From: Pocillopora damicornis
Lineage: Eukaryota
Direction of reading: 5' to 3'
DNA length: 64,000 nt
Assembly: GCF_003704095.1 (NCBI RefSeq)
Contig: NW_020843520.1
Location: forward strand, 124,001 to 188,000
Part shown: piece after piece, positions 7,576 to 37,484 of the stretch
Numbering within the stretch: the stretch's first letter is position 1
Layout of the letters: each line of letters begins with the position of its first letter
Position numbers and translations under genes: made by a program
The notes under the pieces: model-generated
Database searches by the model: none
Seen by the model: only the letters and a program-made list of their open reading frames with translations
What the model was told of the DNA's origin: nothing

Positions 7576-10500
7576 TTAAAGCTTATTGTTCCTACCTTCA
7601 CAGCCGTAAATTTCTAATTTGGCGCCAATATAATGGTACCATTGAATGGCTCGTAGTCTGATGTACCTAGCCTCGATGGCCTGAGGCAAAAACTTCCTGC
7701 TTATTTCTGCCCCCTGGGTTTTGTAACCATCAAACACCTGAAAGATGAAATGGAATTAAAAAACTGCACTTTGCATATCATGTAATACTTGCGTTCTCTG
7801 GTTGCAGGATACCATCTTTTTACATTTAATATCACTTCAGTCACCTCTTTGAGAGGCGATCGGGTGGAAAACTGTAGACGAACCTACATAAACGGCACTG
7901 TATCAAGCAGTCAGTTTTCTTGACCCCCGAAATGTCTACCCATAATCACTGTTCACCCTTTTCAAGCGCTCCCCTGTACCGGTGGAAAACTGCAGAAGAA
8001 CCTACTCAAACGGCACCGTATTAAGCGGTCAGTTTTCAAACTCCCAAAATTTTTACCCTCTAAACACTACTCCACCTTTTTCAAGCGGTATCCTCTATTA
8101 AGCGGTCGAGGTTACCCTTGACTGGGTCCCCGACGGCTTATTTGTTATTGTCCTCCACCTGTACTGAACGGTCACTTAAAGCGGGACCAATTAAAAAACA
8201 AAACAAAACAAAAAACTAAAAACAGTCTTTCACGTAAAGTTTAATTTATGTTTAACTCCCGAAATCAACGTTGGTAGTATTTTTGAGGGAGGTTTTGCAC
8301 GTTAAGTGATCAATAATGGCATAAAATGACGTTTCTTATCGTTTCTTCATAATACCCCCATTCTATGGAACCTGTAGCAGCGGTCACCTCCACATTCCCC
8401 GTTTTTACCGCTTAATAAAGGAAATGTACAGGGAAACGACCTCAAACTATGGAGCTAATCTGAAGAAAGAGTAGCTGGGGAATAGACTGAAACAAACTGA
8501 AACCCATGATAGAGCGACAAAAATAACAGCTTCTCAGAGGTGACTCTCACAGCAACGGCATCTTTTAGATGTTCTCAAAAAATGACAAACTGCAGAATAT
8601 GTGTGCATTACTTGTACTAAGAGTTTGAAATTTACCTAAAAGCCGGCCAAAAGAGTAACTGGTAAAATGCATAAGTATCACGTATCAACTCTCCTAGCCT
8701 CTTAGTAAGCAGGAAGTTTGTCACAATGGACTTAGCCAAACGGCATAGCTTGCCTCAAGTCTCCTGTAGCTCAGTGGTAGAGCTTCCAAAGTGTTTTTAG
8801 AAAGGTTATCGGTTCCCAATAAGGGCAATCGGATTTTTTTTTTCCTCCGAATGTGCCTGTGTCATTCACTGAATAACATCTTCTTCCACTTCAATAATCA
8901 GGCTTGATATTAACTACTGTGACCATCTTCATTTCCATCATCATTAAGCAAAAGCGCGATATTCTCATCTTCGCAGTACGCCGGAACTTTGCCACCACGA
9001 ACTTAGTAAAACGACTAACTCTTGCACTAATCTCTTATAGTTCACCTGGCTTAAAAATTTAACATCTCTGTTATCATCATTGTGCATAAGCATAACACAT
9101 CTCACCTCGCAGTATTCTGGGAGTTTTTCCACTATGTACGTTATTTTAATAACCTATGGGAGGCTGTGGTAAGCCGTACCATTTAAAAACGGTAAAGGTT
9201 ACCACAGCCTCTTACAGCTTAGTGATAGAGCGTTAGAAGTTTTATTTTTATCTCCGAGTATGACTGTGTCGTTCACTAAATAATATCTTCCTTCGCTTAA
9301 ATCACCAGACTTATTTTACCAATTTCATTCGCATCATCATTGCATATAAGCACCACGGTGATAAACGGTCTGAAGTACTGATTGAACGGTGATAGATCGT
9401 CTGAAGTACTGATTAGACGGTGATAGAGCGTCCGAAGTACTGATTGAACGATAATTCTCAGCGTCTGAAGTACTGATTGAACGGTGATAGATCGTCTAAA
9501 GTACTGATTGAACGATGATAGAGCGTGTGAGGTACTGGTTGAACGATGATACTGCGTCTGAAGTACTGATTGGACAGTGATAGAGCGTCTGAAGTACTAA
9601 TTGAAAGGTGAAAGATTGTTTGAATTACCGATTGGACGGTGATAGAGCGTCTGAACTTCTGATTGGACGGTGATAAAGCGTCTGAAGTACTGATGGGACG
9701 GTGATAGAACGTTTGAGGTACTGATTGGACGGTTGTAGGTTCGAATCCTAATGGAGGCTCTCGGAGGTTTTTTTCTTTTTTTTCCTTTTTTTGTTTTAAT
9801 TCCGATTGTATAATTCACTGAATAACATCTTCTTTAACTAAAATCACCAGGTTTAAAGATATACCATCTCCATTCACAAAAGTATTAATTATCGAAAGTC
9901 CTATCCTCGCCGTATCCTGGAAGTTTGTCACGATGGACCATGTTTTGCGGCCTAGATGGCCACTAGTTTCCTATAGCTCCGTGATAGAACATCCGGAATG
10001 CTAATCTGAAGGTCGTAGGTTCGAATCCTGGAAGGAGCACTTCAAGTTGTTTGTTCTTTAGGTATGCCGGTGTCATTTATTGACACTGGCATACTCTTTG
10101 AGGGATACTACTATATAAACGGCGCATATTACCGATTGATATGACCTATAAATCCTCGAGACGGGCTCAGTTAAAATATATATTACTACTTTGCTCGGTC
10201 TGTACTTTAATTGATTGTTATTTCCCCTTTTTGTTCTAGCAATACTGTAACTCACTTTCCGTTGCCCTTCAAATATGTAGTCCATCCAGTTGGAGCTATC
10301 GTTGCTGTACTGTAGGTAATACTCTCTTAAACGAGAGTCCTCCTCCATGTTAGGATTTCCTTGAGTTGAAATAGCTGCAATAGTTTTTCTTTTGCCTAAA
10401 TCAACCTAGAGAAGAAAGAGAGCTTTTACATACCTCTTGTCGACCCTCGCCGAGAGATCGCGGGCCTTCTTAGGTAAACAGAATATGGTAGAATTGGTAT

Positions 10501-37484: not shown

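Follow-up and report, generated by a model that had tools for sequence, protein, structure and literature searches.

A coral gene encoding a chain of 14 discoidin (F5/8 type C) domains is built as a hidden three-domain super-repeat of the form (ABC)4-AB, as had been proposed in a first-pass annotation of the sequence and as is confirmed here by the pairwise similarity of the 14 domains and by comparison with orthologues. The gene lies in a 64,000-nucleotide stretch of the Pocillopora damicornis genome (hereafter the window, to which positions refer unless another contig is named). Judged from its sequence, the product is predicted to be a secreted, multivalent extracellular binder that grew by blocks before corals and anemones separated, in which the A domains hold conserved pockets and the B domains serve mainly as spacers, a reading that is favoured with slightly better than even confidence. 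Block duplication of domains is already known, as in titin and nebulin; what is new here is that the A domains appear to retain the loops of the ligand face and the B domains to lose them on an equally conserved barrel.

The 14 domains are free of stop codons and are encoded by 31 coding exons on the minus strand (35765..7596), with AG/GT splice ends throughout save for the acceptor of D11, which falls in an N gap. Contigs from four RNA runs of four studies were aligned to the window and confirm at least 19 of the 33 introns of the gene; one run (X1) gave a 6,519-letter contig with pieces spanning 7596 to 33292. The annotated span of 7596..35765 holds for the domain array, but the gene is longer, with two further exons for the signal-peptide-like stretch (37484-37446, 36701-36674) and a final one that starts from 6586; in run X1 both additional joints have a depth equal to that of the long contig. 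The parts of the gene, in order of translation, are:

37446..37484, minus strand: coding portion of exon 1, supplying the initial 13 residues of the predicted signal peptide; three of the four RNA runs show the joint 36701/37446
36674..36701, minus strand: exon 2, which completes the predicted signal peptide and agrees with the N-terminus of the Oculina protein, with the same RNA joint
34241..35765, minus strand: D1, class A, three exons; short L4 loop, an outlier within A
32376..33292, minus strand: D2, class B, two exons; no Cys in corals and Nematostella
31203..32055, minus strand: D3, class C, two exons; the sole C domain with both Cys pairs
29596..30401, minus strand: D4, class A, two exons; most conserved of the domains
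28350..29108, minus strand: D5, class B, two exons
27346..28145, minus strand: D6, class C, two exons
25207..26857, minus strand: D7, class A, three exons; the pocket with the most DDR2-like residues, and an additional conserved Cys within the long loop
23177..24531, minus strand: D8, class B, three exons
22268..22797, minus strand: D9, class C, two exons
18904..20154, minus strand: D10, class A, two exons
15570..18494, minus strand: D11, class B, two exons, the second partly inside the N gap 15624-15723
14555..15007, minus strand: D12, class C, a single exon; three Cys in 5/5 orthologues, one apparently unpaired
12860..13770, minus strand: D13, class A, two exons
7596..12449, minus strand: D14, class B, three exons
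6582..6586, minus strand: final coding exon, holding one residue and the stop codon, then the 3' untranslated region; all four RNA runs show the joint 6586/7596

The predicted product, of about 2,140 residues, comprises a signal-peptide-like N-terminal stretch and the 14 discoidin domains, without a membrane anchor. The N-terminal stretch (23 residues from the two extra exons) is hydrophobic, and secretion of the protein is probable on this ground. The stop codon follows one residue after D14 and the orthologues end alike. Every boundary between discoidin domains carries a phase-1 intron and the linkers between domains are one residue long; the extra introns of D1, D7, D8 and D14 and the intron loss in D12, whose single exon is 82% identical to a Stylophora protein, show no period.

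An ankyrin frame at 3626-2475 was considered as a cytoplasmic tail of the 14-domain protein and ruled out, since the transcript ends after 6586 and separate RNA contigs carry the ankyrin frame. It represents an expressed single-frame ankyrin protein (2475-3626, minus strand), with a KKVSF stretch just ahead of the repeats which we take to resemble a PP1-docking motif. The introns of the 14-domain gene hold tandem repeats of 31 bases x 12 (9355-9733) and 118 bases x 2 (7863-8087); ARAGORN called no tRNA in the tRNA-like stretches at about 8750 and 10000.

The 14 domains of the window are only 21-43% identical pairwise, and yet their all-against-all comparison peaks, as anticipated, at offsets of three: the mean pairwise score is 216 at offset 3 and 217 at offset 6, 175 at offsets 9 and 13; the remaining nine offsets score 143-167. 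Period 3 is significant by permutation of identity (P 0.0004), of BLOSUM score per column (0.0001) and of local score (0.00015), and periods 2, 4, 5 and 7 are not significant among these domains by permutation. The class motifs quoted by the annotation are present in the alignment of the window, with three qualifications. S.DG.(F/H)W occurs in class C but is not exclusive to it, D5 fitting it too; the B domains mostly lack the partner Cys but D8 retains it; and in the WCA motif of the A domains the Trp preceding the trench Cys reads Gly in D4 (30273-30274), but Trp in an RNA contig, in Oculina and in the anemones, the discrepancy being an allele or an assembly error.

Slow A domains and degenerate B domains could in principle mimic classes through rate differences alone. 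The A domains are indeed the more slowly evolving class (46.5 versus 35.2 and 32.0%), and the raw comparisons give D3, a class C domain, its highest scores with A domains. However, the signal persists without the per-domain rates: after a rate fit for each domain and removal of the 40 columns holding the motifs first noticed, period 3 has a P of 0.00005, the within-class residuals are equal (0.19, 0.21 and 0.20 for A, B and C) and the A/C split takes rank 2 among 126 labelings. As a site-heterogeneous tree also groups all three classes, an artefact of this kind is regarded as exceedingly improbable.

Orthologues were sought with a Stylophora protein as the query, which gave 66 matches at E 1e-30 or better. 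Four full-length orthologues were found among the matches, those of Oculina and Actinia and two Nematostella paralogues, with exactly 14 domains each and, together with the coral protein of the window, an identical domain order (5/5); two Stylophora gene models that lack or fuse domains were excluded from the counts. Pfam assigns 14 stretches of family PF00754 in Oculina P0012 and in Nematostella P0014, and the exons of the window match the family too. Period 3 is present in all five proteins with P values of 0.0002-0.0004, which are not independent tests as the five share ancestry. The domains had been expected to group in a tree by position modulo 3; a tree of the 14 window domains alone does not resolve them (0 starred branches, class A requiring four changes), but they are so grouped once the orthologues are added. 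In a site-heterogeneous 70-domain tree each of the three classes occupies one side of a branch, with moderate bootstrap/SH-aLRT support (89/77, 87/81 and 85/85 for A, B and C) that falls below the star threshold of the tool, and the class assignment takes two changes, the minimum possible. D4, D7, D10 and D13 group at 99/94, and a forced union of the neighbours D4 and D5, the one such test made, was rejected (AU p 0.032). The period in the five orthologues, the 70-domain tree and the rejected union support the proposal that the array grew by duplication of a trimer, which is considered very probable.

The same 14-domain order and classes in corals and anemones imply that the array was complete before the two lineages split. 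The split of corals and anemones dates to about 450-500 million years ago. Recent duplication or conversion was ruled out, there being no DNA similarity between trimers save a 49-base exon match of D7 and D8 and intron repeats. Adjacent blocks are the most similar, equally so in an ABC and in a CAB frame; D1, D2 and D3 are each atypical for their class, which mildly favours the ABC register. Growth would have proceeded by tandem copying of a three-domain block through the phase-1 introns, after which selection would have fixed the number and order of the domains. An octocoral protein of 14 domains (P0021) was ruled out as an orthologue, having period 2 and no positional match to the coral protein.

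In the accessible text of PMC1553488, duplication of several domains at once is the usual mode of repeat growth, and the word 'discoidin' has 0 matches there. In the C-zone repeat of titin, conservation is concentrated at positions 1 and 7, according to the part of PMC10665226 available. The coral protein has in common with the super-repeats of the titin A-band and nebulin the similarity at a fixed offset, the grouping by position in the block and the position-specific conservation, and differs in being extracellular, in having a single domain family and in its block of three. The open-access text gave no description, among the matches listed, of periodic discoidin arrays or of the 14-domain protein, and no paper there was found to name the six orthologue ids. 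The 'Discoidin domain repeat protein' and 'Coagulation factor-like 1-6' of the Nematostella matrisome, likened here by name only, have names that suit secreted proteins made of discoidin domains alone, and the available text of the source describes no internal period for these entries (PMC12549020).

Other discoidin arrays are periodic as well, in other ways. Among seven other arrays tested, five have period 2 and two have none, and periods of 1, 2 or 8 occur in other anthozoan arrays, so that these arrays hide block structure (periods 2, 3 and 8). One such array, on contig C2308 (122333-236402; L007-L019), has 75 discoidin domains on one strand in an eight-domain super-repeat with sub-periods of 2 and 4 (score 499 at offset 8 against about 315 at odd offsets); its domains are very basic, with a net charge of about +17 each, and it contains two gaps of 7-8 kb, which may be gene breaks. 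The sequence P0018 was not taken as independent of this array. A 12-domain array on C698 (34237-55923, plus strand) peaks at offset 6 and one of 17 whole domains on C847 (290603-323793) at offsets 2 and 4. ABC-like calls in P0101, P0104 and P0183 were not confirmed by position scores. Only 1 of 198 domains was called B in 13 other genomic stretches, which form part of the discoidin loci of the genome, and the genome search and these stretches gave one 14-domain gene and not an expanded family.

As many arrays have other periods, periodicity needs no function, and the period of the 14-domain protein could be a record of growth alone, the domains binding with low affinity, equivalent to one another and without position-dependent roles. 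The frequency of multi-domain duplication in repeat growth (PMC1553488, in the text accessible), the anthozoan arrays of periods 1, 2 and 8 and the phase-1 introns at all boundaries, which permit any block size, accord with such a relic. However, the five full-length orthologues have kept exactly 14 domains in the identical order, and constraint differs by class and is located on the loops; the explanation is thus judged quite unlikely.

The difference between the classes is seen first in the cysteines. Cys73-Cys177 of DDR2 forms the floor of its collagen trench in the available text of PMC2807035, from whose numbering the spacings of the pair were taken. These spacings, in the discoidin domains of DDR1 and DDR2 (PDB 2wuh, 2z4f), are matched by the Cys pair of the A (25/25) and C (20/20) domains and by 3/25 B domains. 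Neither Cys is present in 19/25 B domains, which bears out the coordinated loss of one disulfide that the annotation had suspected. Both Cys of the terminal disulfide, which links the N- and C-terminus of a domain, are present in 24/25 A, 16/25 B and 5/20 C domains, the loss in C being that of D6, D9 and D12.

The second difference is seen in the top loops, which by homology with DDR2 would be the binding face. Between coral and anemone the identity in the top loops and in the rest of the domain, respectively, is 48.7 and 43.1% for A, 16.2 and 41.1% for B and 27.9 and 30.8% for C. In the loops the values for A all lie above those for B (p 0.004), with no difference in the rest of the domain (p 0.31), and the pattern is repeated in 4/4 other protein pairs. 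Invariant loop residues number 9-20 at each A position and 0-1 at each B position. The A domains alone are therefore likely, as far as conservation can tell, to keep a conserved binding pocket. In each of the five proteins D4, D7, D10 and D13 are distinguished by a long loop, corresponding to L4 of DDR2. Loop identity between different A positions is only 32% and each position keeps its own loop residues, and the five A pockets may differ in specificity. This position-specific conservation lends indirect support to the suggestion that the A, B and C positions have distinct roles.

The resemblance of the A pocket to that of DDR2 is partial. With the register of Arg105, Asp69 and Glu113 set by offsets and not from a printed alignment, the DDR2 Arg105 position, at the base of the long L4 loop, holds K/R in 20/20 sequences of D4, D7, D10 and D13 and in 11/50 others; an acid at the far loop base, a possible counterpart of Glu113 in the Arg105-Glu113 salt bridge of DDR2, occurs in A7 (5/5), A10 (3/5) and A13 (2/5) and not in A4 (0/5), and the Asp69 position is acidic only in A4 (5/5) and A7 (4/5). 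Trp52 and Thr56 of DDR2 are matched in 0/25 A domains at either column (a Trp occurs one column earlier in 8/25), so that by the full test A is not a collagen site of the DDR type, and DDR2 gives the A domains no higher scores than factor V C2 does. DDR2 also has a membrane span and a tyrosine kinase, neither of which is found in the coral protein, a soluble 14-domain chain whose B domains are without the second Cys pair.

The two ends of a discoidin domain both lie at the base of the barrel, and single DDR2 domains bind weakly, according to the parts of PMC2807035 and PMC4332414, respectively, that were available. The position of the ends implies that the one-residue linkers should gather the barrel bases on a spine with the loops facing outward. 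In the favoured reading five spaced, conserved A pockets would then give avidity; the B domains would have lost the pocket, with a decayed top, and been kept for packing and spacing, and the C domains would bear a smaller and more divergent site. The ligand may be guessed to be a conserved self molecule such as a matrix protein or a glycan. An 'uncharacterized' anthozoan protein thus becomes testable, with five candidate binding domains singled out by conservation and both paralogues existing in the laboratory anemone Nematostella.

The fast B loops could instead be diversifying rather than degenerate. The protein would then be an adaptor, docking by its A domains on a conserved host surface and recognising microbes or symbionts by variable B loops, in bridging or opsonisation. 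Between the two Nematostella paralogues the B top loops are 39.8% identical and the B barrel 77.1% (A loops 88.4%), B loop lengths vary and B is the class richest in Tyr and Phe, all of which would suit recognition. On the other hand, the loss of the trench disulfide in B fits decay, a single gene was found with no expanded family, and whole-exon dN/dS, for pairs at dS 0.19-0.43, is about 0.14-0.27, with B exceeding neither A nor C, a comparison of few codon pairs and little power. Such an adaptor is the chief competitor of the favoured reading and an unlikely explanation, though one with a real share of the probability.

Two odd cysteines conserved in 5/5 proteins, in the loop of D7 (five Cys in the domain) and at the start of D12 (three Cys), predict a specific cross-link. 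They would also be expected of a structural polymer in which the protein or its partners are cross-linked into a network of matrix, mucus or capsule, the triplet mattering more for packing than as a code for binding, as would the one-residue linkers and the location of the class-typical B residues outside the top loops. However, the odd Cys of D7 and D12 may pair with each other, the polymer leaves the conserved A pockets unexplained, and the pTM of a four-domain model is only 0.61; the chance that the polymer explains the array is put as small.

The model in question, of D11-D14 in the coral orthologue P0011 (pLDDT 88.8), was built from 73 sequences, most of them out of register, and its geometry between domains is not trustworthy; an earlier model from 10 sequences (pLDDT 64, pTM 0.42) was left out of the geometry, and docking of D14 on D11-D13 as separate chains scored 0.00 in a run without an effective alignment and carries no weight either way. 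The fold of the modelled single domain is the eight-stranded beta-barrel, superposing on factor VIII C2 with Z 26.6 and 1.4 A over 151 residues. The C1-C2 domains of factor V/VIII and lactadherin and b1-b2 of neuropilin are the best matches in sequence and fold (single domains 1.3-1.5 A, Z about 26, with about 1.4 A for factor VIII C2, lactadherin C2 and neuropilin b1); these pairs likewise have very short linkers, but comprise two domains as against 14. The modelled A13-B14 pair lies about 6 A from neuropilin b1b2 and 11-14 A from the factor V/VIII pairs, distances that share the untrustworthy inter-domain geometry of the model. By profile alignments factor V has no Cys at the WC site of the A type. 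The phosphatidylserine-binding C2 domains of factor V/VIII and lactadherin insert hydrophobic spikes into membranes; a four-residue, Trp-bearing insert of factor V C2 is absent from the coral A profile.

In factor V and the venom prothrombin-activator cofactor, cupredoxin-type A domains precede the C domains. The Stylophora orthologue P0003 bears an automatic venom prothrombin-activator label, and its content is of discoidin domains only; a coagulation factor V label fails for this protein, which has only Pfam families of the discoidin type and a chain filled by 14 such domains. Automatic labels of this kind may inflate lists of coral toxins.

A polycystin-1-like gene lies upstream on the same strand, in which 18 discoidin domains (U1 to U18) precede TSP1, PKD, REJ, a weak GPS, PLAT and a polycystin channel. 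Eleven of the 18 lie wholly in flanks outside the window. The parts in the window are:

54789..63239, minus strand: last discoidin domains of the polycystin-1-like gene (second exon of U12 to U18), in A-B-C order; the array runs past the window
39888..54529, minus strand: remainder of the gene with TSP1, PKD, REJ, weak GPS, PLAT and channel

From the splice phases, with one GC donor, the discoidin array appears to be joined to the channel. Domains of the B type stand at every third place from U5 onward. In a quick tree of 92 domains, with long branches, 6/6 domains in B slots fall inside the B clade (SH-aLRT 92), from which 18 unrelated discoidins are excluded, 4/4 in C slots join C, and 3/5 in A slots join A, U8 and U17 falling with C. 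The P value for period 3 is 0.06 over all 18 domains, and 0.008 for U5-U18, a range chosen after looking. The best genome-wide match of D5 other than itself is U1. The adjacent gene thus appears, from these placements, to use the same A-B-C triplet, so that a channel and a soluble protein have one block in common. Desmophyllum P0028 resembles part of the neighbouring gene, and a search for full-length relatives among proteins of lengths to 3515 gave one weak match only. Cnidarian polycystin-1-like proteins have the PKD, REJ, PLAT and channel parts found in the neighbouring gene too; the polycystin 1 of Nematostella hair cells is described, in the text of the two sources available, with PKD, REJ and WSC and with no discoidin array, against 18 discoidins in the coral neighbour (PMC8846589; PMC7902050).

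In a bolder reading the triplet would be a rigid unit that aligns the A pockets at constant intervals as a ruler for a periodic extracellular ligand, and the 14-domain protein would be a soluble tether, ligand or decoy of the adjacent channel, with its matching A-B-C array in the ectodomain, in a joint and hitherto undescribed anthozoan system of sensing or adhesion; this is thought rather improbable.

Other features of the neighbouring gene were also observed. The long loop of U2 contains an insert rich in Ser, Thr and Asn. Between U4 and U5 lies a different beta-sandwich exon (L003:1666-2139, minus strand; Pfam PF22633/PF00754), which by motif is presumably an F-type lectin-like fold lacking the His and which may occupy a C slot. 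Two nested single-exon frames, named by reading the sequence, lie within the 9-kb intron of U10 (L001-L002): one of 741 residues, RING/B-box-like, on the plus strand, and one of 446 residues, resembling a seven-helix receptor, on the minus strand. The Desmophyllum P0028 model begins with a receptor piece similar to the latter, which suggests that the nesting may be the same in that coral.
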